The notes: generated by a model not told the origin, from the sequence alone. A stretch of 32,000 nucleotides of DNA from Planctopirus limnophila DSM 3776 (GCF_000092105.1 NC_014148.1:5310001-5342000), one strand, 5' to 3'. Positions 2,871-32,000 are shown, counted from the first letter of the stretch. Numbers and translations are program-made.

Positions 2871-3740
2871 ATGTCTGCCGTCCAGCAGAAGGCACGCGTG
2901 CTGCTGCACGAGGCCATGGCGAAAAATACATTTCGCCTGCGGCTCGATTGTGTTGAGCTGGCGACCAAGATCACTCCGGGGCAGTTCTTCATGGTGAAAA
3001 TCCCGGGAGAGAACGATCCGCTTCTGGGCCGACCGTTTGCGCTGTTTGATATCTGCAGGGATGAAGAAGGACGTGTTGCCGGGCTGGAGTTCGGCTACGT
3101 TGTCGTGGGTAAAATGACCGGTCGCCTGGCTCAGCTTCAGGCGGGAGATGAAGTGGAAATCTGGGGGCCACTTGGCAACGGCTTTCCGGCATCACCGGGC
3201 GGGCGGCTGGTTTTCGTCGCTGGTGGGATTGGGCAAACGCCCTTTCTGGCACTCGCCCGCGAAGCTCTTGGAGTACAGAGTTATCCCCAGCAGAATCCGC
3301 GAAAAGTGGTTACGCCCAGTTCCGTCACACTTTGTTACGGAGCGAGGAATGCTGAGTTTCTGGCGGGTGTCGAAGACTTCCAAAGTGTTCCCGGCCTGAA
3401 GGTTGAACTGGCCACCGATGATGGTTCACTGGGGCACCATAGCTATGTCACTCAATTACTGGAAGAACATCTCAAGGCTCCCGGTGAGCCCGTGACCATC
3501 TATGCCTGCGGGCCAGAACCGATGCTCAAAGCTGTGCAGAAACTGGCACTGTCGTACAACGTCACCTGCTGGTTATCGTTAGAAACCCCAATGGCGTGCG
3601 GCTTTGGAGCCTGCTTCAGTTGTGTCGCCAAAATCCGGGAAACGACTCCTTCGGGTGAGGAAAGCTGGGATTACCGACGCACTTGTGTCGAAGGGCCCGT
3701 CTTCGAAGCTCGCGAACTGATCTTTGAAAATCATCCTTAA
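2871..3740 (+). CDS. pyrK: Dihydroorotate dehydrogenase electron-transfer subunit (PyrK-like FAD/NAD-binding, 2Fe-2S)
   Basis: Ferredoxin-reductase-like RPFALFD, GPLGNGF and VFVAGGIGQTPF motifs, plus the C-terminal cluster motif MACGFGACFSCV...C. The ORF opens at 2799 but the ATG at 2871 (MSAVQQK) gives the typical length. The start is uncertain. Confidence 0.85.
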   Translation: MSAVQQKARVLLHEAMAKNTFRLRLDCVELATKITPGQFFMVKIPGENDPLLGRPFALFDICRDEEGRVAGLEFGYVVVGKMTGRLAQLQAGDEVEIWGPLGNGFPASPGGRLVFVAGGIGQTPFLALAREALGVQSYPQQNPRKVVTPSSVTLCYGARNAEFLAGVEDFQSVPGLKVELATDDGSLGHHSYVTQLLEEHLKAPGEPVTIYACGPEPMLKAVQKLALSYNVTCWLSLETPMACGFGACFSCVAKIRETTPSGEESWDYRRTCVEGPVFEARELIFENHP

Positions 3741-3819
3741 ATTTCAACTCGTTACCCAATATCCCGCTGGTGACCTCTAATCGAATTCGCTTCCGCGTCC
3801 AGAATGGCAGTTTTCTCTC

Positions 3820-4926
3820 ATGTTTGTCGATCAAATTGAAATTACCTGCAAAGGGGGCGATGGTGGCCCCGGATGTTCCAGCTTCCGGCGGGAAGCGCAC
3901 GTCCCTCGAGGCGGCCCCGATGGTGGTGATGGTGGTCGCGGCGGGCACGTCGTCATTATCGCTGATGAAAATGTTGACAGCCTCGTGCACCTGGTCGGGA
4001 TTCGTCATTGGTTTGCCAGCAATGGGAATCCCGGGACCAGTTCGCTCAAGACGGGTAAAGATGGCGAAGATCTCGTCATTCGTGTGCCGATGGGAACCAT
4101 TCTGCGTGATTCTCAGCGTGGCTTCGTCCTGCGTGATCTGACAGATCATGGCGATACGGTGATCGTCGCCAAAGGGGGCGAAGGGGGCTATGGCAACACG
4201 CGTTTCATGTCATCGACGAACCGCGCCCCGCGCGAATTCGGGCCGGGTGAACCTGGTGAAAAACGTGAGCTGCTGCTGGAGTTGAAAGTCGTCGCCGATG
4301 TGGGACTGATTGGAAAACCCAATGCCGGTAAATCGACGCTTCTTTCGCGGATGACACGGGCGACTCCGGAAATTGCCAACTACCCGTTCACGACGAAACA
4401 CCCGAATCTCGGGATTGTCCGCGTCGGTTACGAGCGGCAATTCGTGATGGCTGATATTCCCGGGCTGATTGAAGGAGCCCATGCGGGAGTGGGGCTAGGT
4501 CATGAATTTTTAAGGCACGTCGAGCGGACTCGCGTGCTCGTACATCTCGTTGAACCCAATCCGGATGACCAGACGGACCCGATCGAGAACTATCTGCAGA
4601 TCCGCGAAGAGTTGCGGCTTTACGATGACGATCTGGCCCAAAGACCTGAAATTGTCGTCATCAGCAAGTCGGAACTGCTGGATGCCGATGCTGCTAAAGA
4701 GCTGCTTGAAGAGCGGATTGGCAAACCCGTCCTGCAGATTTCAGCGATGACAGGTAAAGGACTTCCCGTACTGACCAAACAGATCATCGAGATTCTTGAT
4801 CGTCTGAAACAGGCTGAGGAAGACGCAGAGGCGGAAGCGGCTTACCTTGCCAGGAAAACATCGTCTGAAGCAGAGGCTCCCATCGCGCCGGCTCCTGTCG
4901 ATTCATCTGCAGAAAATGCTGAGTAA
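3820..4926 (+). CDS. obg: GTPase Obg/CgtA
   Basis: Canonical N-terminus MFVDQIEI..GGDGGPGCSSFRRE..PRGGPDGGDGGRGG. G-domain motifs GKPNAGKST, DIPGLIEGA and ISKSEL are present. Confidence 0.97.
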   Translation: MFVDQIEITCKGGDGGPGCSSFRREAHVPRGGPDGGDGGRGGHVVIIADENVDSLVHLVGIRHWFASNGNPGTSSLKTGKDGEDLVIRVPMGTILRDSQRGFVLRDLTDHGDTVIVAKGGEGGYGNTRFMSSTNRAPREFGPGEPGEKRELLLELKVVADVGLIGKPNAGKSTLLSRMTRATPEIANYPFTTKHPNLGIVRVGYERQFVMADIPGLIEGAHAGVGLGHEFLRHVERTRVLVHLVEPNPDDQTDPIENYLQIREELRLYDDDLAQRPEIVVISKSELLDADAAKELLEERIGKPVLQISAMTGKGLPVLTKQIIEILDRLKQAEEDAEAEAAYLARKTSSEAEAPIAPAPVDSSAENAE

Positions 4927-12289: not shown

Positions 12290-12376
12290 GTCTGTTCTGT
12301 GCTGACTCTCAAAATCCAGATGAGCTTGGCCAGTATTTCACAAATACCCAACATCAAACACTTAAAGATTTGACCT

Positions 12377-12748
12377 ATGACACGTCGCGTACTGAATGTC
12401 GGCCAGTGTGTGCCGGATACGATAAAGATTACGAATTTTCTGAAGTCGAGCTTCGATGTGGAGATCATTCCTTCAGCCACTGCTCCGGAGACAATCGATC
12501 TCCTGGGTAAGTCGAGCTATGACTTGGTACTGATCAATCGCAAGCTCGATGCCGACTACACCGACGGCATGGATATTATCCGCCAGATGAAATCTGATGA
12601 GCGGTTCCAGAAGATCCCGGTGATGCTGATTACGAACTATCCTGAGTACCAGCAGGAAGCCGTCGCGATTGGTGCAGCCTATGGCTTTGGCAAAGACGAG
12701 CTTGGTTCTTCCGACGCCGTCGCCCGCTTAACGCCGTATCTGGGCTGA
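12377..12748 (+). CDS. Stand-alone receiver (REC)-like domain protein lacking canonical phospho-acceptor residues
   Basis: CheY-like layout: VLNVGQ (in place of DD), DLVLIN (in place of the acceptor D), IPVMLIT (T present) and GAAYGFGK (K present). Confidence 0.7.
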   Translation: MTRRVLNVGQCVPDTIKITNFLKSSFDVEIIPSATAPETIDLLGKSSYDLVLINRKLDADYTDGMDIIRQMKSDERFQKIPVMLITNYPEYQQEAVAIGAAYGFGKDELGSSDAVARLTPYLG

Positions 12749-13121
12749 TGAACCTCATCTCTCGATTGGCAGAAGCAATCAGCCGTTTAGAAGTCAGAGG
12801 TCGGCGATGCCTGACAAGGATCCATCCCGATGTGTGCAGCCATCTCTGACTGTTTCCTTCGAATCGACAGCTTTGGGTGGGATCGAGCTCACTGTCCACT
12901 TCAGAAAAAACTTGGTTAAGTTTTCGAAAGGTTGCTGATTCCTCCTGTTCAATGAGAGTCTTCGAAGTATTATCACTGCGCGGTTGGCAGGAGACTGAAC
13001 TTCCATCTGCCAAGGTTCTTGAGCCAGTAACGCATTTGACATCAGAAAAACAGTAAACAGTTATAACGGCAGATAGGAAAGAGTGCAGTCCGGTATTTGC
13101 CGGAAAGCAAGCTTCACTGAA

Positions 13122-13176
13122 GGCCGACGCAGAACAGCTCTCTTCATGGGCTGGTCTGCGTCGGCCTTTTTCGTTT
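13122..13176 (+). terminator. Rho-independent terminator, + strand
   Basis: A perfect 12-bp stem GGCCGACGCAGA (13122-13133) / TCTGCGTCGGCC (13155-13166) is followed by TTTTTCGTTTG. Confidence 0.75.
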
Positions 13177-13424
13177 GTGGTGATTGAGAATCTGTCTGAA
13201 TTCATGCCGGATTCTCGTTCAACTTCCACAACAGCGGAACCTTGGGGCGTATTTAGAAGCCCACATTGGCAAAAACCGTTGCTTAACCGGCACCACAGAG
13301 ATCCGGAATCGCATCAAGCAAACAAGTTGGCATGAGAGAGACTTGTCATCAGGAACAGTTCTCATTTCGCAACAAACTCATTCACTCCACGCTCCCATGA
13401 CATCATTGATTTTCGGAGAATTCC

Positions 13425-13823
13425 ATGGCACGCATTGAATCCATGCTCGTGGATCAGATTTCTGTTGTTAACTCGGAAGGAGAGCCTTCAATAATCCTTG
13501 TCATCCAAAGTTTCCTTTTTCACCAGGGAGCAAAAATCCCCGGTCGATGCTGGATGGAAACTCCGGAAGGGCATTCGGTCAACAAAAGCGGCCCCTTTGA
13601 ATTCACGATTCAAAGTACCGGAGAAGTCTGCATGTGCCGACTTCATACGACCCAGACTTATCATGCGATCCAGATTGACTCACGAAAAGATCTGGCATCG
13701 ACAGTTCCAACTGTGGAACAGCAAGAATCCAATCGAGATGAAGAGCCACCGTCCCTTCTCCGATGGCGACCGACCTTCTCCATTGAGCATGATGAATTGG
13801 AAGTTACCCATGCCCCCTGCTGA
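13425..13823 (+). CDS. Hypothetical protein (no recognisable family)
   Basis: 132-aa ORF with GGAGA 5 nt upstream of the ATG and a balanced amino-acid composition. The competing +1-frame ORF 13498..13908 starts at TTG and looks basic and out of frame. Confidence 0.35.
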   Translation: MARIESMLVDQISVVNSEGEPSIILVIQSFLFHQGAKIPGRCWMETPEGHSVNKSGPFEFTIQSTGEVCMCRLHTTQTYHAIQIDSRKDLASTVPTVEQQESNRDEEPPSLLRWRPTFSIEHDELEVTHAPC

Positions 13824-14082
13824 TCTTCCAGCCGATAACGATTCTCCTTTGCAGCAGCCTGAAAAAGCATTGCCTTCCATTTCGAGGCAAGAAATAGACA
13901 TTCGTTAAGGCCTGTAGAATCTCTCTCGAATTCACATCGTATGCTACATGCCCAGATATTGGATTGGATTCAAGGACCGACTTCCCAGGTTATTTGGTCG
14001 TGGCGGCGTAATAACCAGTATTTTATTGAGCAAACAATTCATAAATTGGCTGCCACAGGAATATGAAATCTGAGCGTAACGT

Positions 14083-14122
14083 TAAGAAAAATGTCCGGCG
14101 ATCCATCTGGTTCGCCGGACAT
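14083..14122 (-). terminator. Rho-independent terminator, - strand, ending the DUF2294/DUF3309/GY-rich unit
   Basis: An 11-bp stem ATGTCCGGCGA (14091-14101) / TCGCCGGACAT (14112-14122) is followed on the minus strand by TTTTTCTT. Confidence 0.8.
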
Positions 14123-14187
14123 TCTGCAAAATGAAGAAAACGGATCATCTCACGAAAAGTACGAGAGCTTCTGGATACAGATGACAG

Positions 14188-14766
14188 TTACCGATCACTG
14201 ACCTGTTCATCATCCCTGCGCACTGTCTGTGAGTCGTCCGCTGGCAGTGTGGCCAGAGTAGGCTCACTTGCCTGCCCAGGGATTGCCGAAACGACTGCTG
14301 CTGTCGAAGTGGTGGTGCAACAGGAAGGTTGTGGAACGCAACAGGCTGCGACTTGTGTCGTATAGCCAGCCATAACAACTCCTATTGTCTGGCAGGCGGC
14401 GACAGGTTGCTGATAAGCGACACAACTATATTGCACTTGCGGTCGATAGTATCTTCCACGCCGTCCACGATCGTAGGTGTTCGGCCCATAGGTATAACCA
14501 TTCTGATACCGATAGCCAGACCATCCGGGTTGGTTGTATCCGCTACCATATCCGTAAACCGCCTGCTGGCGGTAGCCACCATTCCATCCGTTTCCGTAGT
14601 ACTGATTTCCATAGTATCGATTGGATGCGTTTCCATAACCCACCCGAAACAGCTGCGCTTCTGCGTCAGGACATCCCATAAACAGGGTAAAACCCGTAAT
14701 CATGGTTCCCAAGACATACTTCCATAAAGAGCACATGATTGATACTTTCTTAATCCTTGGATTCAT
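14188..14766 (-). CDS. Secreted Gly/Tyr/Asn-rich low-complexity protein with Cys-rich C-terminal part
   Basis: The signal peptide MNPRIKKVSIMCSLWKYVLGTMITGFTLFMGCPDAEA-Q comes from the ATG at 14766. It is followed by YGNQYYGNGWNGGYRQQAVYGYGSGYNQPGWSGYRYQNGYTYGPNTYDRGRRGRYY and then ...AACCVPQPSCCTTT. Confidence 0.65.
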   Translation of the reverse strand: MNPRIKKVSIMCSLWKYVLGTMITGFTLFMGCPDAEAQLFRVGYGNASNRYYGNQYYGNGWNGGYRQQAVYGYGSGYNQPGWSGYRYQNGYTYGPNTYDRGRRGRYYRPQVQYSCVAYQQPVAACQTIGVVMAGYTTQVAACCVPQPSCCTTTSTAAVVSAIPGQASEPTLATLPADDSQTVRRDDEQVSDR

Positions 14767-14799
14767 ACAGTTGGCTGCAAATGCGGCCAGATTCACATC

Positions 14800-14955
14800 T
14801 CAGATGCGTTGCATCAGAAGGAGAACGATCAGGATCACGACAATGAGCCCAATCCCTCCGCTTGGATACGCCCCCCAGTTGCGACTATAACCCCAGGTGG
14901 GCATCGCACCGATCATCATGAGTATGAGCAATACAATCAGTACAGTTGTCAGCAT
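14800..14955 (-). CDS. DUF3309-family small membrane protein (51 aa)
   Basis: MLTTVLIVLLILMMIGAMPTWGYSRNWGAYPSGGIGLIVVILIVLLLMQRI matches the DUF3309 pattern (GALPxWxYSRxWGYxPSGG...LLLxGRI). AAAGGAG lies 7 nt upstream of the ATG at 14955. Confidence 0.8.
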   Translation of the reverse strand: MLTTVLIVLLILMMIGAMPTWGYSRNWGAYPSGGIGLIVVILIVLLLMQRI

Positions 14956-15059
14956 GCAGAGACTCCTTTCTATCAATAAGGAAAGCTCAGTCTTGGAACA
15001 CGAGGTTGTTCCATAGTGTGATGTGGCTGCAAGCAGGCAATAAGCGCTGCCACGTCTCT

Positions 15060-15473
15060 CTAACTGGAAGAGATCTCGCCGGTCCATTTGGAGGCTGGAA
15101 TTCCACTTGCTAGTCGGAAGAGTTGAATCACTGTTCCATTAACAAATGTATGAGTTACGACACCATTGTCGGTCTCAAACTCCACAGCGGCATCTTGAAT
15201 CGCTACGCCTGTTACACGCTGAAGTTCCTCTCTCAAGGCGGGAAGAGAGCACATGAAGAGTCGGTTGTGGTATTCTTGAACCTGAGCAGCGCCCGTTTCA
15301 GTCTGCGATAATGTCACCTCGACGGGTGACAACGCATCGATGAGAGTCACGATTAATGTCGCCTGATCAAGCGTGACTGTGACTTTGGTTGGCGCATGTC
15401 CCGACATTTCCAATTGAAACCTGGTGATGACATCCTTGACTTGTTGCTCCATCGACTTGGTTTTTGGGGGCAT
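15060..15473 (-). CDS. DUF2294-family protein (paralogue 1)
   Basis: It shares the layout of the clear DUF2294 protein at 16454: ...GHAPTKVTVTLDQATLIVTLIDALSPVEVTL...LREELQRVTGVAIQD... Confidence 0.75.
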   Translation of the reverse strand: MPPKTKSMEQQVKDVITRFQLEMSGHAPTKVTVTLDQATLIVTLIDALSPVEVTLSQTETGAAQVQEYHNRLFMCSLPALREELQRVTGVAIQDAAVEFETDNGVVTHTFVNGTVIQLFRLASGIPASKWTGEISSS

Positions 15474-15609
15474 AACGATATCCTTGCCATTCTTCTCTGG
15501 GGGTTCGCCGCAGGCTGTTTTTTGAAAGGCTTATGCCCGAGCGGAGGAATCCTGGTGCTCCTGTGAGCAAACATTGCACAAGCGCAGGCATGCCAACAGT
15601 GAACCGGAT

Positions 15610-15873
15610 CTAAAACACTCGAATCTTGTTAATTACAGGTACGCCGTCGGCGTACTCCAGCAGCACTGATTGTGCTAATTGTTTGATGTAATACGAATCC
15701 GTTCGTCCATGGATCAGTAAGTGTGTTGACGAACGCAGCACTCGAATGCCGCGAACACTTCCGTAAAGTCTGCGAGTGACAAGATCAGTCAACTCCGGGA
15801 GGTCGATGGGTACCATTGACGCTATCGCTCTCTCGCTCTGGCATTCGGACTGCCGATTCATTGATATTTCCAT
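15610..15873 (-). CDS. BON-domain-like small protein
   Basis: IRVLRSSTHLLIHGRTDSYYIKQLAQSVLLEYADGVPVINKIRV fits the BON pattern (x-V-x-L-x-G-x-V-x-S...K..A...GV..V.N.I.V). Confidence 0.55.
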   Translation of the reverse strand: MEISMNRQSECQSERAIASMVPIDLPELTDLVTRRLYGSVRGIRVLRSSTHLLIHGRTDSYYIKQLAQSVLLEYADGVPVINKIRVF

Positions 15874-16050
15874 TCTGCTATCAATAGATGGTGAAACTCT
15901 CAGGATGTGGCTTATCGCGTGATGACGGAGAAATAGCTGTGATCGATGTCACTAAGTGGATTCCCTCAGTTCGTATGATGAGATCCACGATGACGTCATA
16001 TGACATCGTGCATGCAACTTAAGATCATCAAGCGTCGGTATCTAATACCT

Positions 16051-16103
16051 GAAAAACAAAAACCGACATAAAAAGATCCCGGGCAGGGAACTCTTTATGT
16101 CGG
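16051..16103 (-). terminator. Strong Rho-independent terminator, - strand, with no annotated gene feeding it
   Basis: The minus strand reads CCGACATAAAGAG-(15-nt loop)-CTTTTTATGTCGG (13 bp, one G.U), followed by TTTTTGTTTTTC. Confidence 0.8.
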
Positions 16104-16453
16104 CTTACAGATGATCATGCCTTCCGGGATGACCCGGCCTGCATTTTCTCTTGTCTTCCGAGGGATATTTTCAATGTCGCTGATAGACGAGACCGTTCTG
16201 CGATAATGACTGGCCGTGAAAAATATAGGTACTATGAATTCTTCAGCCAAGTCATGCTTCATGGTACCCTGTGGCATGATGATGAACAGGGACAATGGTC
16301 ACATTTTCTGAGATTGTGGAAAATCGATTCATTCCTTTTTTCATTTCTTTAGGTTATGAAGGATGAGTGTTCTGACAATAGATCCCCTTCCGTACAGCAA
16401 TAGATGACACGTTGCTTGTGAATGATTTGAATGGATATGCAAGGTGAGTTCAG

Positions 16454-16855
16454 ATGACCAAACCAATCATTGAGCCAAAAACCGCGGGAGAGATTGCTTC
16501 TTCCGTATGTATTGCCATGGCCCGTTTTGAGCAGGATTTCATGGGCCGCGGACCTAAAGACATCCATGCGCATCTGGTGGGGGATCTGCTGATTGTTCGA
16601 CTCCAGGGTGTTTTGACAGCTGCGGAACAACAATTGATCAAGACCTTACCCCCGGGAAAAGGTCGTGATCTGCTTAAAGAAGTGCGCACTCAACTGATTG
16701 AGACAGCTCGGTCGCAGTTGGAAGAGATGGTTGAACAAACCACTGGAGTGGCGTCAATCAGCCTGCATCACGATATCAGCACCAAGACTGGTGAAGAGAT
16801 TGTGATTTTTACTCTGGCCCGGGCTCCCGTTGTCAGAGAGACACGCCGGCGTTGA
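16454..16855 (+). CDS. DUF2294-family protein (paralogue 2)
   Basis: FEQDFMGRGPKDIHAHLVGDLLIVRLQGVLTAAEQQL...GRDLLKEVRTQLIETARSQLEEMVEQTTGVASISLHHDISTKTGEEIVIFTL is a textbook DUF2294 signature. AAGGTGA precedes the ATG. Confidence 0.9.
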   Translation: MTKPIIEPKTAGEIASSVCIAMARFEQDFMGRGPKDIHAHLVGDLLIVRLQGVLTAAEQQLIKTLPPGKGRDLLKEVRTQLIETARSQLEEMVEQTTGVASISLHHDISTKTGEEIVIFTLARAPVVRETRRR

Positions 16856-17167
16856 TGGCGCAGGCACGAATGCCAGCCAGCTCTACCAGGGGATTAACGC
16901 GTGCTCATTGGTGGTATTCATCCAGTCGCGCTGCGGGCGAAGGTTGCTCGTGCCGCCATTGTGAGGTATTTACCTCAACTGTTTGTTTTTGAAGACAAGT
17001 AAAATCTCGATTTGGTTGCCGATCCGTCGGCAGAACTTTCCATGAATCGCCTGCCTGGAAGATCGCTTGGCGAACAGGTATCACTTTTCCAAGGGTTTAC
17101 CACCTGGAGTAATGGCTAAAGAATGTCGATTGACCTGTTTGCACCATGGAGTAAGGCAATCGGATGT

Positions 17168-27515: not shown

Positions 27516-27588
27516 TGGAGCGGAGGGGAGTCGAACCCCCGACCTCAGCATTGCGAACGCTGCGCTCTCCCAACTGAGCTACCGCCCC
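27516..27588 (-). tRNA. tRNA-Ala (anticodon CGC), CCA not encoded
   Basis: The reverse complement is GGGGCGGTAGCTCAGTTGGGAGAGCGCAGCGTTCGCAATGCTGAGGTCGGGGGTTCGACTCCCCTCCGCTCCA. It folds as a cloverleaf with the G3:U70 Ala identity pair, anticodon loop TTCGCAA and a GTTCGACT T-loop. Confidence 0.95.
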
Positions 27589-27804
27589 GATCTCGCATGA
27601 ATGAATTTTATCTGGTTCGATCATCGGCGGAAAGGCTCTACCCGGTTTTGTTACCCAGCACCTTTTGTTGAGTGGAGTTTGACGCTGAAGGGGATGACCG
27701 GAGGTGAGAGATGTTCCAGGCAGGAGCCGGTGATGGTGATGTCGTCTTCATCGCCCACGAAGCAGGTCTCGGGGGCGGAGATGCCGCTGACAGCACACTG
27801 GCAG

Positions 27805-27845
27805 GGTTCTGGAGACGGTTCGGGACTGGGCTCGGGGCTGGGTTC
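27805..27845. repeat. About 3.4 copies of a degenerate 12-nt tandem repeat (GGYTCNGGRVMB); encodes (EPSP)n on the - strand and (GSGx)n on the + strand
   Basis: Read directly: ggttctggagac ggttcgggactg ggctcggggctg ggttc. Confidence 0.8.
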
Positions 27846-27948
27846 AATTGATCTTTGTGGAAACACAGATAGCCCGCGACACTCCCTGTTTCGGGCCTGG
27901 TCGGGGGCTATCTTGAGCTGTTACTTGAAGAACAGAAGCATGCCACTA

Positions 27949-28470
27949 TCAGAGATGCATGAGATAGACGATGTTTTTGTCGATATCAACGGCGATCTGA
28001 AGTCCAGTGTGATCCTCGTAGTATTTGCCGTTCTTGATTTGATCGACACTCTGCAGGAGCCTGCCGAATGCTTTTGTCGACTTTCTCGCAGTTATCGACA
28101 TGGTTGAGGGTGGAGGGCTGGTGGGTTTGGACGGCCAGTTCTTATACTTCATATTCATATCGGGATGAAATTCCATGAGATCTCCGAACTTTTCGATATC
28201 AGCTTTCTCCGCCTTGAAAATGAGGAATTTGTCCACATCCTGGAAGCCATAGGTGTGGAAAGAGATTTCCGTGGCTGATGTCGGCACTCCGACATTCCGG
28301 GTGATCTGGAGTATCTTCTGATAACAGGGGTGTTTCACTGCTTCCTGATAGGAGACCTTCCAAAGATCCGTTCTGTCCGTCTCGATGGAACACCCGCATG
28401 GCAACAGCACCAGACACATGATCAGAAAACAGCGGATATCCATGGATCTCAAGATGTTCCAAGTATTCAT
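27949..28470 (-). CDS. Exported, probably lipid-anchored hypothetical protein
   Basis: N-terminus MNTWNILRSMDIRCFLIMCLVLLPCGCS (signal with Cys). AAGGAA lies 6 nt upstream of the ATG at 28470. No family was recognised. Confidence 0.6.
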   Translation of the reverse strand: MNTWNILRSMDIRCFLIMCLVLLPCGCSIETDRTDLWKVSYQEAVKHPCYQKILQITRNVGVPTSATEISFHTYGFQDVDKFLIFKAEKADIEKFGDLMEFHPDMNMKYKNWPSKPTSPPPSTMSITARKSTKAFGRLLQSVDQIKNGKYYEDHTGLQIAVDIDKNIVYLMHL

Positions 28471-28574
28471 GGAATGTTCCTTAATAGGCTGCCAGTAGAA
28501 TCGTTGGGTGGATGTCAGTGAACATTATTGTCATACCACACATCGAATGATCGTTTATCTCTGATTACATATAA

Positions 28575-29621
28575 TTAATGCTTCAGCTCATTTAGGTAAT
28601 TTTCCAGTAACAACTGCTCCCGCTTCAATTCCGCCTTCTCGACGGGCAACCTCCACTGGAATTCGCACGTGGAGGCGATCCTCTTGTCTTGGCGGCCCCC
28701 GTCGATTCCGTATTCGCCCGCAAGGATCATTCGATAGGCTATAGGTCGGCTGCAATCGAAGATCCTGCCGAGGGGCAACGTCAGACGATGCGTGGTCTTG
28801 GCGGGGATGAGGATCGTCGTTAAGCCCGCTTCGTCCTTTAGGCTTTTCCCGAAGCGGGTTTTCACCACCGCGTGGAGTTCCTTCTCGGGGGTATAGGCAA
28901 GTGATCCGTTCGGGAACGCCGTCACGACCTGGAGTGAGGTGATCTTGAACTGTATCGGTTGGGCCGACTTGTTTTCGATGGAGATCCGCGTGGCGAAGTC
29001 TGGTGGGGTCTCCGTCTCGCCGGTGGAAGTAGCAATATTCCCGGTGATCTCCAGATCGAGATTGCCTGTCTTCCAGGAGACTGCCGATTCGGAGGGCTGC
29101 GTCTCCTCAGCCGGACGCGTTTCTACGATCGTGAAAGGGATATTGACAATCCTGGTGCCGCAATCGATGTCGACCGAGTACTTTCCGCTGGCGGTCAAAT
29201 CATGGCGCTCGTTCAACAGGGCGGTTCTTGTGAAGGCCTTGAGGTGCGGGTCGAAGGTGTCGGCGAACTCGAAATCGCGGATTCCTAACTTGGGATTCCA
29301 CACGTTTGATATGAGAAAATCGTGGAGCGCAACATGAGGAATCGACGTGCCATTCTCCCCCTTTACGGTGAATCGGAAGAGCTGATGTTGCCATTGGCCT
29401 TGAATGGCTTTGGCTTGAGGTGTGCGGCGATAATGAATTGTGACCTTAACCGGTTCGCCAGCGAGATACTCCCGGCCTCTTTTCGGAGAAGCGATGTGGA
29501 TCTCGTATCCATTCTCCGTGGCGATCCATTCTGGGGCAGGCGCGGCTACTTGATTGGATTGGGCTTGAGCACGAATGGAACCGATCAAGGCAAGTAATAT
29601 CATCGCGACGAACATCCGCAT
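28575..29621 (-). CDS. Secreted hypothetical protein (about 348 aa, beta-rich)
   Basis: Signal peptide MRMFVAMILLALIGSIRAQA-QS. GAAGGTG lies 6 nt upstream of the ATG at 29621 (the ORF opens at GTG 29630). No family was recognised. Confidence 0.7.
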   Translation of the reverse strand: MRMFVAMILLALIGSIRAQAQSNQVAAPAPEWIATENGYEIHIASPKRGREYLAGEPVKVTIHYRRTPQAKAIQGQWQHQLFRFTVKGENGTSIPHVALHDFLISNVWNPKLGIRDFEFADTFDPHLKAFTRTALLNERHDLTASGKYSVDIDCGTRIVNIPFTIVETRPAEETQPSESAVSWKTGNLDLEITGNIATSTGETETPPDFATRISIENKSAQPIQFKITSLQVVTAFPNGSLAYTPEKELHAVVKTRFGKSLKDEAGLTTILIPAKTTHRLTLPLGRIFDCSRPIAYRMILAGEYGIDGGRQDKRIASTCEFQWRLPVEKAELKREQLLLENYLNELKH

Positions 29622-29787
29622 GGCTGTCACCTTCGTGGGTTCAATCTCCGATCATCATTCCTGAAATTCTTCAATGCAGAAACTTACTTGGCAAACATTT
29701 TGAAAAGAAAACCGCCTTTACTCGTCTAACGGCTCATATTTCGTTTCACTGGGCAATAGGGATGTGGGTGACCGCGTGACCACCAAA

Positions 29788-30396
29788 TCAACCTTGAATT
29801 GATGGAGTCTTTCCAACTCCTTCCAGGCATTTTTTTCGGGCGAGTTGAGCGCTTTCCGCCTTATCACCCTCTGTCTTCTGGAGAATCAGGATCTGCTCCC
29901 TCACCTCTGGAAACCGCTCTCGAAGCATTCCCTCAAGAAGCGTTCGATGTCTATGATATGCCGATGATTCAAAGCTGACCCATTCGACGGCGGGCCATGT
30001 CATCACTTCCAGAAGATCCGCATATGGGATGTAGCTACAGGAGTCTGAAAGCATATAGACGCGCAGCACTCTGTCCTTGTTGGGAAAATTCTGGATCAGT
30101 TGGCTGGGCTCAAGGCAACCCGGCTTCGAACTATCTCCTGTTCGATCGTAATAGAGAGTTAGTCGTTCGATGCGAGACCCTGACAGTTGTTGAATGGGGC
30201 TCCGCCATGCCTTGCTGTCGATCAATGGCCAGTCCACATCACCATTGATCGAGCTGAACGACCATTGCTTGAGATACTCTCTGGTCATCCGGTAGCGGCC
30301 GTAGGAATCGATGACGGAATAGCTGAACGACAACAGCAGGAGACAGGCAAGCGATGCCAGAGTAATCCATATCCATCGTTTCCGATTTCGTGACAT
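29788..30396 (-). CDS. N-terminally membrane-anchored hypothetical protein, paralogue family member P1
   Basis: The TM anchor is WIWITLASLACLLLLSFSYSVI. The shared motif is IQNFPNKDRVLRVYMLSDSCSYIPYADLLEVMTWP. Confidence 0.65.
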   Translation of the reverse strand: MSRNRKRWIWITLASLACLLLLSFSYSVIDSYGRYRMTREYLKQWSFSSINGDVDWPLIDSKAWRSPIQQLSGSRIERLTLYYDRTGDSSKPGCLEPSQLIQNFPNKDRVLRVYMLSDSCSYIPYADLLEVMTWPAVEWVSFESSAYHRHRTLLEGMLRERFPEVREQILILQKTEGDKAESAQLARKKCLEGVGKTPSIQG

Positions 30397-30406
30397 CGCA
30401 CACCTG
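30250..30406. repeat. Copy A of a 157-bp direct duplication (6 mismatches vs 31224..31380)
   Basis: Aligned base by base at a constant offset of 974 nt. It covers the 5' UTR end and the first 49 codons of P1. Confidence 0.9.
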
Positions 30407-30588
30407 CCTTTTTGAAAGTAAAGAATCCATCAAGGTAGGACTTCTTCCGTTTCCACAATATCAAGAATTCGTCCAGACCACTCGGGCACATCGGGCGTCA
30501 TGGCCAGCGCGGGGGAGACCGATCCATTCGGTTGGGAGGGGCAGTCGGCCCGGGGACGCGGCAATACTCCGCGTTCAATAAACAAGGC

Positions 30589-31200
30589 TCACATTGACAA
30601 AGGATCTTTTCGCTTCTTCGCGATAGTTCCAAGTTCTTGCCAAAGCAGCTCGACATACTTTTTAAGATTACGGCCATGCCTTTCGTTTATCTGTGCCTGT
30701 TCAATCGAAAACAAAATAGAAATCACGCGTTCAAACTCCTCGCCAGGAACATTTTGCAAACATCCGTCGCTTTCGATCGTGACCTTGTTGTGCGGCCATT
30801 TGGTCAGATGGAAAAAGACGGCGGGGATCTCGGACTGTTCGACAGATCCAGACAACACAGTGTGAGTCACGCCATTTTTCAGAGGGAAGCTGTCGATGAT
30901 TGGCAGAACCCGTACCACCCGTTCAATCCCCGTGTAGGGCAACTCCGGTTCGACGAAGAAATCCACTTCGGTTGGATTGGTGTCGAACCATGCCACGAAT
31001 TGTAAGGGAAGTTGCTGCCGCAGTGCGGCTGGCAGATAGCTCCCCTGTTTAGTGGTGACATGTAAACCATTTTGGCGAGACGTGTGAATGTATCTCCATA
31101 GGACAGCCCGTTCATACGTTTGCTTGACGATCAAGACAAGTGCCACCAGAAACAGTCCTGTCACCACGTACCGCATGATATGATCACGGGAAGTCGTCAT
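30589..31200 (-). CDS. N-terminally membrane-anchored hypothetical protein, divergent paralogue P2
   Basis: The TM anchor is YVVTGLFLVALVLIV. The motif is IDSFPLKNGVTHTVLSGSVEQSEIPAVFFHLTKWP. GAGGA lies 6 nt upstream of the ATG at 31200. Confidence 0.65.
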   Translation of the reverse strand: MTTSRDHIMRYVVTGLFLVALVLIVKQTYERAVLWRYIHTSRQNGLHVTTKQGSYLPAALRQQLPLQFVAWFDTNPTEVDFFVEPELPYTGIERVVRVLPIIDSFPLKNGVTHTVLSGSVEQSEIPAVFFHLTKWPHNKVTIESDGCLQNVPGEEFERVISILFSIEQAQINERHGRNLKKYVELLWQELGTIAKKRKDPLSM

Positions 31201-31370
31201 GGCGAGTCCTCAGTTTTAGTTCGCGAGCTGAACGACCATTGCTTGAGATACTCTCTGGTCATTCGGTAGCGGCCGTAGGAATCAATGACGGAATAGCAGA
31301 ACGACAACAGCAGGAGACAGGCAAGCGATGCCAGAGTGATCCATATCCATCGTTTCCGATTCCCTGACAT
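31197..31370 (-). pseudogene. Truncated 5' copy of a P1-like gene (57 codons: TM anchor only), stop overlapping the P2 start (ATGA)
   Basis: MSGNRKRWIWITLASLACLLLLSFCYSVIDSYGRYRMTREYLKQWSFSS is near-identical to P1 residues 1-49. Homology then breaks abruptly into RTKTEDSP-stop. Confidence 0.55.
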
Positions 31371-31380
31371 CGCACACCTG
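31224..31380. repeat. Copy B of the 157-bp direct duplication
   Basis: See copy A. Weaker similarity continues about 30 nt further upstream (30407-30436 vs 31381-31410). Confidence 0.9.
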
Positions 31381-31502
31381 TGTTTTCTTGAATAAAGCAA
31401 TGGCTCAAGGCAAAAGTCTTTTGATCTGCACAGTATTTAGAATCCATTAAGAAGCTTGGATAATCTTGTAAATCGACAAGCTGCCTGCGATTGTCCTCTC
31501 GG

Positions 31503-32000
31503 TTAGAACTCAGTTCTCGCTGGGGGAGAGTTTAATTCGATGTATCTTCTCACCTCTCGATGTGCTTCGGCTAAGGAGTCGTTAGAGGCTTTTGAATTCA
31601 TGACATTCAGCAGGCGCTCCCTGAGGCCGGGGAAATGTTCGCGGGAAAGGTTCTCTCCTGGGAAAAAAAGTGCATTGCACCGGAATGATTCGAGATTGGG
31701 CCAACCCAATACCTCCACGATGTCGGCGTAGGGCAGATTGCCGGTCGGAAACGCGATCTCCACATGCGTCACAAGCGACTTTTCCGGGAAGTTGTGAATC
31801 GAATGACTGGGCTGTTGATACCCCGGAAATGCATAGCTGCTTGTCAAACTTGATTGCGATGGCGAAATATCTGCATACGAGATTAATAGTTCGTCACACA
31901 TACGAGTATCACCCAAGATCGCCAGCGTGGTATCCTGGAACTGGCCGATCCGTGTCCTTTTCTGGGGTAACAACTTGCGCGCATCGTAAATTAAACAGAT
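31503..32000 (-). CDS. Paralogue family member P3, 5'-partial (reading frame open to the window edge)
   Basis: IHNFPEKSLVTHVEIAFPTGNLPYADIVEVLGWP...EHFPGLRERLL aligns with P1 IQNFPNKDRVLRVYML..IPYADLLEVMTWP...ERFPEVREQIL. No in-frame stop occurs between 31973 and 32000. Confidence 0.6.
   Translation of the reverse strand: MCLIYDARKLLPQKRTRIGQFQDTTLAILGDTRMCDELLISYADISPSQSSLTSSYAFPGYQQPSHSIHNFPEKSLVTHVEIAFPTGNLPYADIVEVLGWPNLESFRCNALFFPGENLSREHFPGLRERLLNVMNSKASNDSLAEAHREVRRYIELNSPPARTEF

Follow-up and report, generated by a model that had tools for sequence, protein, structure and literature searches.

In Proteus mirabilis, IdsD and IdsE are encoded by adjacent genes with variable strain-identity regions; one of the two is a membrane protein, and export proceeds via a type VI secretion system (T6SS). 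Polypeptide N-acetylgalactosaminyltransferases (GalNAc-transferases) of the GT27 type combine a GT2 domain with a Glyco_transf_7C domain and a C-terminal lectin. Polymorphic toxin loci consist of a conserved N-terminal part and a variable C-terminal part with the immunity gene immediately downstream, accompanied by orphan modules (PMC4436062), and in the T6SS clusters of Vibrio cholerae arrays of orphan immunity genes arise by sequential displacement of effectors (PMC5361080). Here we analyze a block of genes from Planctopirus limnophila DSM 3776 which shares features with each of these systems. The block extends from 27.6 to 32 kb of a stretch of 32,000 nucleotides, called the window in the following, and adjoins a tRNA-Ala gene next to ftsY. 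To judge from the comparison with its relatives, this part of the window represents the tRNA-proximal part of a Planctopirus-specific hypervariable locus composed of two-gene modules; the block forms its end, which is specific to the strain and partly decayed. Planctomycetes are rich in genes annotated as hypothetical, and P. limnophila is amenable to genetic manipulation. To our knowledge, almost nothing has been defined about competition or recognition between strains in this group.

Arrays of tail and partner genes at the ftsY/tRNA-Ala site

Beyond the 5' side of tRNA-Ala(CGC) we found six consecutive open reading frames (ORFs) on the minus strand, named A173, B348, C202, D203, E67 and F (Table 1). 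This arrangement had been noticed in an earlier reading of the window (the sequence-only reading), which regarded the six ORFs as a candidate for an undescribed envelope system. One family hidden Markov model (HMM) matches C202 (E 3e-70), D203, F (E 1e-35) and E67 and nothing else in the 32-kb window. The internal paralogy suspected in that reading was recovered (C with F, E 1e-12; D with F, E 0.004), with D as the more distant member (profile-profile E 2.5e-4).

Two of the intergenic gaps carry remnants of a larger gene. In its intact form this gene encodes about 835 amino acids (aa), consisting of a GT2 glycosyltransferase domain, a linker with PEPS repeats, a beta-rich head and a tail of about 290 aa. 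In the comparison loci L096 and L097 the glycosyltransferase (GT) domain matches Glycos_transf_2 with 65.8 bits (cut-off 23.3) and in addition Glyco_transf_7C. The GT part is 81-86% identical between loci and the head 80-90% between variants, whereas the tails are only about 20% identical over about 290 aa. Along the 677-aa version from Planctopirus ephydatiae (e677) the identity to both copies from Planctopirus hydrillae drops from 0.8-0.9 over residues 250-385 to 0.07-0.4 over residues 395-677. The motifs VLDR, DSP, MYxPxGxIWV and PxW are retained in the tails, which could be sorted into five types (T1 to T5). Extra copies without the 5' catalytic half begin in the middle of the GT domain (at ETRLYHQ), as in the read assembly L089, or in the head, as in the second copy of P. 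hydrillae (hyd2); they are still homologous to the large gene.

Comparison of the ftsY/tRNA-Ala locus across relatives revealed a different combination of genes in every Planctopirus genome examined; at this site the gene set of four further Planctopirus genomes differs from that of the window. The arrays are given here in the direction of tRNA-Ala, beginning at the distal end; ftsY lies beyond the tRNA. In the complete genome of P. ephydatiae (L086) the order is e677, D, C, B, G232, a T2 tail remnant, D', a head remnant and tRNA-Ala, and G232 is a new member of the family. P. hydrillae (L095) contains a head with a T3 tail followed by the family member H230, part of a head with a T4 tail followed by C, and a T2 remnant followed by D'. 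In metagenome-assembled genomes (MAGs) from ponds (L097 continuing into L005) a full-length GT2-linker-head-T1 tail gene with one frameshift precedes D, a T4 remnant, a 5' fragment of C, B, F, C, a T2 remnant and D'. The window of DSM 3776 contains F, a 5' fragment of C, D, a T4 remnant, a frameshifted C, B, A173, a head remnant and tRNA-Ala. In the unrelated read assembly L089 a T5 tail is followed by the family member P0023 (about 21% identical to D') and the beginning of a further large-gene copy. The relatives have the full-length gene at the far end of the array, then its partner, and then tail remnants with intact small-gene modules. The tRNA-Ala(CGC) gene also adjoins ftsY in L005 and L086. 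On the left, the locus is bounded by conserved AP_endonuc_2, HEAT and TspO genes in L086 and L096. Short-read assemblies and MAG contigs of three Planctopirus genomes break off inside the locus (L005 at position 1, L095 at position 1 and L097 at its end), in each case where the head or the C 5' module is repeated, so that it will tend to be underestimated in automated comparisons.

The partner genes encode proteins of about 200-240 aa with a single N-terminal membrane anchor. The spacing between a tail and its partner gene amounts to 2-33 nt at seven junctions in six loci. It is 15 nt between e677 and D and between the full gene of L097 and D, 2 nt between the first copy of P. hydrillae (hyd1) and H230, 33 nt between hyd2 and C and between the T4 remnant of the window and C202, 6 nt between the T2 remnant and D', and 31 nt between the L089 tail and P0023. 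Whenever a tail or tail remnant has a gene on the same strand after it, this next gene is a member of the family. The exception is a tail remnant in P. ephydatiae (L086 2720-2917), where the next gene encodes a leucine-rich repeat (LRR) protein on the opposite strand. The pairs are T1 with D, T2 with D', T3 with H230, T4 with C and T5 with P0023, and the pairing recurs between loci: T2 precedes D' in L005, L086 and L095, and T4 precedes C in L095, L097, L091 and the window. As a separate observation, in the large gene of P. ephydatiae another segment (L086 2720-4047) has taken the place of the 5' half of the GT2 domain, and the remaining frame of 677 codons is open. This segment holds the tail remnant just mentioned, the third in this genome (43% to the C-terminus of e677), and the anchored LRR gene on the opposite strand (2977-4047).

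Such an array has left in the window three orphan small genes (D, F and the frameshifted C), a second copy of the 5' module of C, and the remnants of a T4 tail and of a head; B348 and A173 are unrelated. In tblastn the head remnant matches residues 247-294 of e677 (71%, E 6e-13) and hyd1 with 90%, and at the DNA level it shares 85-90% identity with the heads of L086, L096 and L097. The T4 remnant matches residues 334-372 of hyd2 (77%, E 8e-15), and the same T4 tail end is located in front of C-type genes in L095, L097 and L091. D203 shows 97-98% amino acid identity to L086 6174-6785 and L097 4395-5006, and in P. ephydatiae as well as in the MAG L097 it directly follows the T1-tail gene. The last codons and the spacer of a T1-tail gene are retained in the window at 31201-31231. 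Collinearity with L086 and L097 stops at 31231, and the window segment 30197-31231 aligns with L097 4364-5397.

E67, which the sequence-only reading had rightly described as a 5' gene fragment, is a 5' duplicate of C with 93% identity over 174 nt (direct repeat 31224-31397 versus 30250-30423; BLASTP of E67 against C202, 86% over 57 aa). It comprises the promoter-proximal region and about 57 codons of a C-type 5' module and is a recombination joint, not a gene. Similar 5' fragments of C occur in L005, L097 and L092. F is 93% identical to L005 1543-2223, which encodes 226 aa with an N-terminal anchor. About 1.3 Mb away from its ftsY locus, P. ephydatiae carries a solo F-type gene (Spb1_17860) followed by a C-type 5' fragment (L092 10001-10834). 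The window segment 31332-31958 is 91% identical to this F plus C-fragment stretch, and the occurrence of the same unit at both places indicates that it moved between loci. The locus is rearranged through two conserved modules that occur repeatedly, the 5' module of C and the head, and by import of old divergent alleles.

Selection, allele exchange and distribution

The ratio of nonsynonymous to synonymous substitutions (dN/dS) was determined by the Nei-Gojobori method against orthologues. We obtained 0.15 for F, 0.23 for C, 0.24-0.28 for B and 0.38 for D', compared with 0.00-0.03 for ftsY, smpB, capD and argG. Judged from their substitutions and reading frames, the ORFs of the block are real coding genes that evolve fast and are partly broken. 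D' stays at 203 aa in seven sequence clusters (P0008, P0010-P0014) while tails are truncated or contain stops. The dS values of B and C against L005 reach 0.41-0.51, compared with 0.058 for ftsY. In the central approximately 80 codons of C and D' dS is 0.5-2.1, in the anchor module it is 0.08-0.28, and dN/dS stays below 1. This combination reflects mosaic import of old alleles and not recent positive selection, which was considered for the variable segments and rejected, as dS is inflated there instead. The D203 allele differs from its counterpart in P. ephydatiae by a dS of only 0.014, while the flanking core genes of the two species show 0.13-0.21; such near identity suggests a recent exchange between species.

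To define the distribution of the family we used a word-indexed search over 5.8 billion proteins and an exhaustive HMMER search over 1.84 billion representatives. The exhaustive search delivered 13 representatives, two of them false positives and 11 genuine. The candidates P0021 and P0024, two long repetitive proteins (E 1e-10 to 1e-4), were rejected, since their scores are sums of many weak repeat matches; one is a eukaryotic protein with insect-allergen repeats, the other has low-complexity repeats. The members that can be placed belong to P. limnophila, P. ephydatiae, P. hydrillae, MAGs designated 'Planctomyces sp.' (about 96% flank identity) and read or metagenome contigs of the same locus. 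A metagenome scan yielded one locus. The ftsY neighbourhoods of 20 other Planctomycetaceae (288 kb in total) contain no component of the locus, and they lack the tRNA as well. A search for relatives on plasmids or phages gave no hit, neither for the locus nor for the tails. Among the placeable members, the locus is found only in the freshwater genus Planctopirus or on Planctopirus-like contigs.

Genes of the block and composition of the window

B348 is 100% identical to Plim_4173 of P. limnophila DSM 3776, the source of the block; the locus tags of A173, C202 and D203 are included in Table 1. A literature search found no mention of the Plim locus tags of the block. Searches with Pfam, NCBIfam, PADLOC and PHROGs returned only noise for the ORFs, in line with the sequence-only reading, which could not assign any of them to a known family. 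The component models of PADLOC-DB 2.0 produced no match to the five block proteins at E<=1, and the tRNA is the sole RNA family detected by an Rfam scan. Each ORF readable from its start contains exactly one N-terminal hydrophobic segment, and the same is true for full-length orthologues of F (226 and 220 aa). Of the proposed export or membrane anchoring, the anchoring is borne out by this segment, but export is not borne out for the anchored proteins, which have K/R on both flanks of it. Beyond a membrane anchor or a signal peptide nothing supports an action of the products in the envelope. The gaps between the ORFs, which had been called short or overlapping, measure 102-192 nt, and the sole ATGA overlap marks a rearrangement joint and not operon coupling.

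Orthologues of C202 are 84-97% identical, and the C-termini of orthologues with 225-240 aa match the frame that is displaced in the window. In the region of the frameshift, independent read assemblies agree with the window at 100% identity. ORFs of about 200 aa at 12.6-14.8 kb were tested as further copies of the family, and none of them matched the family HMM. The predicted structure of D203 is of moderate quality (predicted local distance difference test score, pLDDT, 69), and in Foldseek comparisons with PDB and BFVD no match fell below E 0.1 or exceeded a template modelling (TM) score of 0.28. A relationship of the family, as a short LRR protein, to the neighbouring membrane-anchored LRR protein of P. 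ephydatiae was rejected (hhalign probability 0.3%).

B348 is an all-beta protein, probably with two beta-sandwich domains and a C-terminal helix; the AlphaFold2 (AF2) model is poor (pLDDT 50). Foldseek returned only generic matches to double beta-sandwiches (TM 0.2-0.28), and a sequence search of the PDB gave noise only. Its sequences form three clusters, all with >=85% identity. The sole Pfam match, WxLIP_PGBD, is weak (E 0.0046) and lies under the cut-off of that family. The UniRef label 'Intracellular proteina…' of Plim_4173 (presumably proteinase inhibitor, BsuPI-like) was not reproduced by Pfam, and kinship of B348 to the variable tail was rejected by comparison. The small protein with hydrophobic N-terminus after B348 differs from genome to genome and is A173, F or G232. 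A173 was seen solely in DSM 3776 and a close relative and is absent from L005, L086 and L095; it occupies the position in the array at which P. ephydatiae carries G232 and D'. The view that A173 is lipoprotein-like has to be given up. No canonical lipobox is present: in CLVLLPCGCSIE the two candidate sites, LLP before C and PCG before C, both fail the pattern [LVI][ASTVI][GAS]C. As a cryptic member of the anchored family A173 was rejected too (hhalign probability 0.2%).

The block had also been described as more A+T-rich than its flank. Analysis of windowed G+C and codon usage confirmed a difference, which is small (G+C 0.47-0.55 versus 0.52-0.585) and confined to codon positions 1 and 2. At the third position (GC3) the block (0.55-0.68) resembles the housekeeping genes (0.54-0.69) and the core genome. 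The lower G+C content therefore reflects amino acid content, and there is no compositional sign of foreign origin.

Table 1. Position of the genes, gene remnants and tRNA of the block within the window
Feature	Position	Strand	Description
tRNA-Ala(CGC)	27516-27588	minus	ARAGORN; Rfam tRNA 64.4 bits; fixed right-hand boundary of the variable locus
Head remnant of the GT2-head-tail gene	27663-27842	minus	within a 71-aa ORF (27651-27866); PEPSPEPS...CQCAVSGISAPETCFVGDEDDITITG
A173 (Plim_4172)	27949-28470	minus	small protein with hydrophobic, Cys-containing N-terminus
B348 (Plim_4173)	28575-29621	minus	Sec-type signal peptide (…RAQA/QS)
Displaced C-terminal coding remnant of the C gene	29718-29834	minus	other frame after the frameshift, ending KNAWKELERLHQFKVDLVVTRSPTSLLPSETKYEPLDE and stop
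C202 (Plim_4174)	29788-30396	minus	C-type member of the anchored family; reading frame cut short by a frameshift (about codon 188)
T4-type tail remnant	30433-30549	minus	last approximately 39 codons, ending …PDVPEWSGRILDIVETEEVLP and stop; 33 nt upstream of C202
D203 (Plim_4175)	30589-31200	minus	D-type member of the family, orphan here
E67	31197-31400	minus	duplicated C-type 5' module, fused to the start of D203 via an ATGA overlap
F	31503-32000	minus	F-type member of the family; N-terminus cut by the window edge

At 12300-17150 the window has another stretch of reduced G+C content (0.48-0.50), with long non-coding gaps and small ORFs. This stretch contains a receiver-domain-like ORF of 123 aa (12377-12748), two paralogue-like ORFs of about 135 aa (15060-15473, minus, and 16454-16855, plus) and a Gly/Tyr/Asn-rich protein with hydrophobic N-terminus (14188-14796, minus). 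Two ORFs of about 200 aa in this stretch have a low GC3 (0.45-0.48) and no Pfam match and lie outside the anchored family.

Interpretation and comparison with known systems

The best-supported mechanism is that the locus works like a polymorphic toxin/immunity system, although by our estimate this explanation falls a little short of an even chance. As in the definition of such toxins, a conserved front is joined to a variable tail, a small gene is located right downstream, and orphan modules share a region of homology (PMC4436062). The small anchored proteins would act as immunity-like specificity partners of the variable tails. They may have been retained since they still neutralise or recognise tail variants from neighbouring Planctopirus strains, and the locus would serve antagonism between strains or the discrimination of self and non-self. 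The accessory, rearranging 'immunity or decoy' array envisaged in the sequence-only reading gives the best fit to the related genomes: the variable site and the partners that outlast a decayed large gene were recovered, while the immunity role is putative.

Several findings weigh against this mechanism. On the side of the large gene, the N-terminus is a GT2 enzyme and not of the trafficking type, and the large proteins of L096 and L097 contain no signal peptide, transmembrane segment or known trafficking domain. The tails have no Pfam family, toxin family or solved structure (best PDB profile match E 0.066); they are homologous to each other and do not represent unrelated toxin folds, and no toxin domain from the shared known pool is present. 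With these two defining features missing, a trafficking N-terminus and a toxin domain from this pool, the locus was not filed in any known polymorphic toxin family. In the window of DSM 3776 (to 32000) the large gene exists as two remnants only, with no full-length copy. On the side of the partners, C202 is frameshifted, F occurs without a preceding tail in L005 and L092, B348 and A173 stand outside the two-gene module, and the dN/dS of D is 0.92, a value that derives from very few substitutions. The anchors of C, D and F have K/R on both flanks, and the partner domain may lie on either side of the membrane. The pairing itself shows no graded correlation between the divergence of tails and partners (Spearman -0.13, n=10), and tandem duplication of the two-gene unit could yield the same pairing without any interaction. 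Finally, several of the comparison loci are MAG or read-assembly contigs.

A more specific version of the toxin/immunity mechanism would make the locus a new class of effector-partner system. Here GT2 would be the conserved module, silent 3' cassettes would switch the tail of about 290 aa by recombination into the expressed gene, the single-pass membrane proteins would be tail-specific protectors, and the block would be the protector repertoire of the strain. We regard this version as rather doubtful. If true, it would be the first system for kin discrimination or antagonism defined in Planctomycetes, possibly acting via glycosylation of the target.

Among the alternatives, a locus for variable surface glycosylation comes next. 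According to this explanation the C-terminal domain of the GT2 fusion picks the substrate and the anchored proteins are acceptors or cofactors, with pressure from phages or grazers on the cell surface, and not antagonism between bacteria, as driving force. An intact GT2 plus Glyco_transf_7C catalytic domain is indeed fused to head and tail, in an architecture that resembles polypeptide GalNAc-transferases. A GT1-like and another GT-like gene are located directly upstream in L096 and L097, capD-type and GT4 genes occur in the window, and glycan loci are classically hypervariable. However, the extra copies cannot be enzymes, as the catalytic half of the GT domain is missing from them, and the small genes remain intact after loss of the enzyme gene, which is unexpected for mere substrates. 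The only full tail gene of P. ephydatiae has lost its 5' GT half, yet its 677 codons are open. We consider a glycosylation locus unlikely; if this explanation were true, the locus would offer a new way to create surface diversity.

A lower probability still is assigned to the absence of any current function, in which case lineage-specific genes would decay at a hot spot of recombination and the module pattern would stem only from old tandem duplications. The frameshift in C202, the fragment E67 and the tail and head remnants fit to such decay, as do a codon usage less adapted than that of housekeeping genes, the poor or moderate AF2 models and a gene content that differs in each genome. Yet dN/dS values of 0.15-0.38 over dS up to 0.5 are not neutral, the frames of D', C, B and D are full-length across three named species and several MAGs, and the loss is selective in that it affects the large gene and spares the small one.

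The original proposal of the sequence-only reading, a self-contained undescribed envelope system formed by the six ORFs of the window, appears improbable. All products have an N-terminal signal or anchor, the genes are co-oriented, and D-C-B is collinear in P. limnophila and P. ephydatiae, but the unit as a whole is not conserved: A173 is unique, P. ephydatiae has its F gene elsewhere, and L005, L086 and L095 each deviate in gene order and content. Two members are broken, the gaps hold debris of a gene that is missing here, and this gene, the key GT2-head-tail gene, is represented in the window by its two remnants only. It is highly improbable that the block is a mobile genomic or defence island inserted at tRNA-Ala: like tRNA-linked islands the block adjoins a tRNA gene, varies in content between strains and is missing from the ftsY loci of 20 other Planctomycetaceae, but it contacts the 5' and not the 3' end of the tRNA, has no tRNA-derived or att-like repeat within 27-32 kb, no integrase or transposase (Pfam, NCBIfam) in this part of the window or in the complete P. 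ephydatiae locus, no PADLOC or PHROG match, no plasmid or phage relatives and no compositional deviation at GC3, and the locus occupies the same site in all Planctopirus genomes seen.

Throughout the genus, the locus bears the genetic hallmarks of a polymorphic compatibility system and is built from parts without known toxin, immunity or secretion kin. If it is functional, the toxin/immunity mechanism would extend the idea of polymorphic toxins and immunity to a new phylum and a new architecture and assign this family of orphan membrane proteins a role.

With the GT27-type GalNAc-transferases the large gene shares the order of GT2 catalytic domain, 7C subdomain and a C-terminal non-catalytic domain that possibly confers specificity. 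In contrast to these enzymes, its C-terminal region is no ricin-type lectin (Pfam), is polymorphic and is paired with a downstream gene. The Ids pair is similar in having paired adjacent genes, and C and D' likewise contain a variable segment within a conserved scaffold; the two systems show no sequence relation, and the interaction of tail and partner is putative here.

The orphan immunity arrays of V. cholerae (PMC5361080) differ from the locus in that no T6SS or delivery genes are present here, that B348 and A173 lie outside the family and that the immunity role is putative. In both cases, partner genes outlast the displacement of their cognate large gene, and alleles are nearly identical to pairs elsewhere, as seen for D203 and the e677-D pair. 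Compared with CdiA, Rhs and MafB loci (PMC4436062, PMC3150448), the locus carries GT2 and a beta-rich head in place of a secretion or filament domain, no motif of the VENN or PxxxxDPxGL type, no known toxin domain and no gene for a secretion apparatus nearby. Its tails are mutually homologous at 20-50%, and its partners all come from one family of proteins with an N-terminal membrane anchor. What it has in common with CdiA, Rhs and MafB is a conserved front with a sharply variable C-terminus, a variant-specific downstream gene, downstream modules that lack their 5' part and retain homology, and repertoires that differ between close strains.

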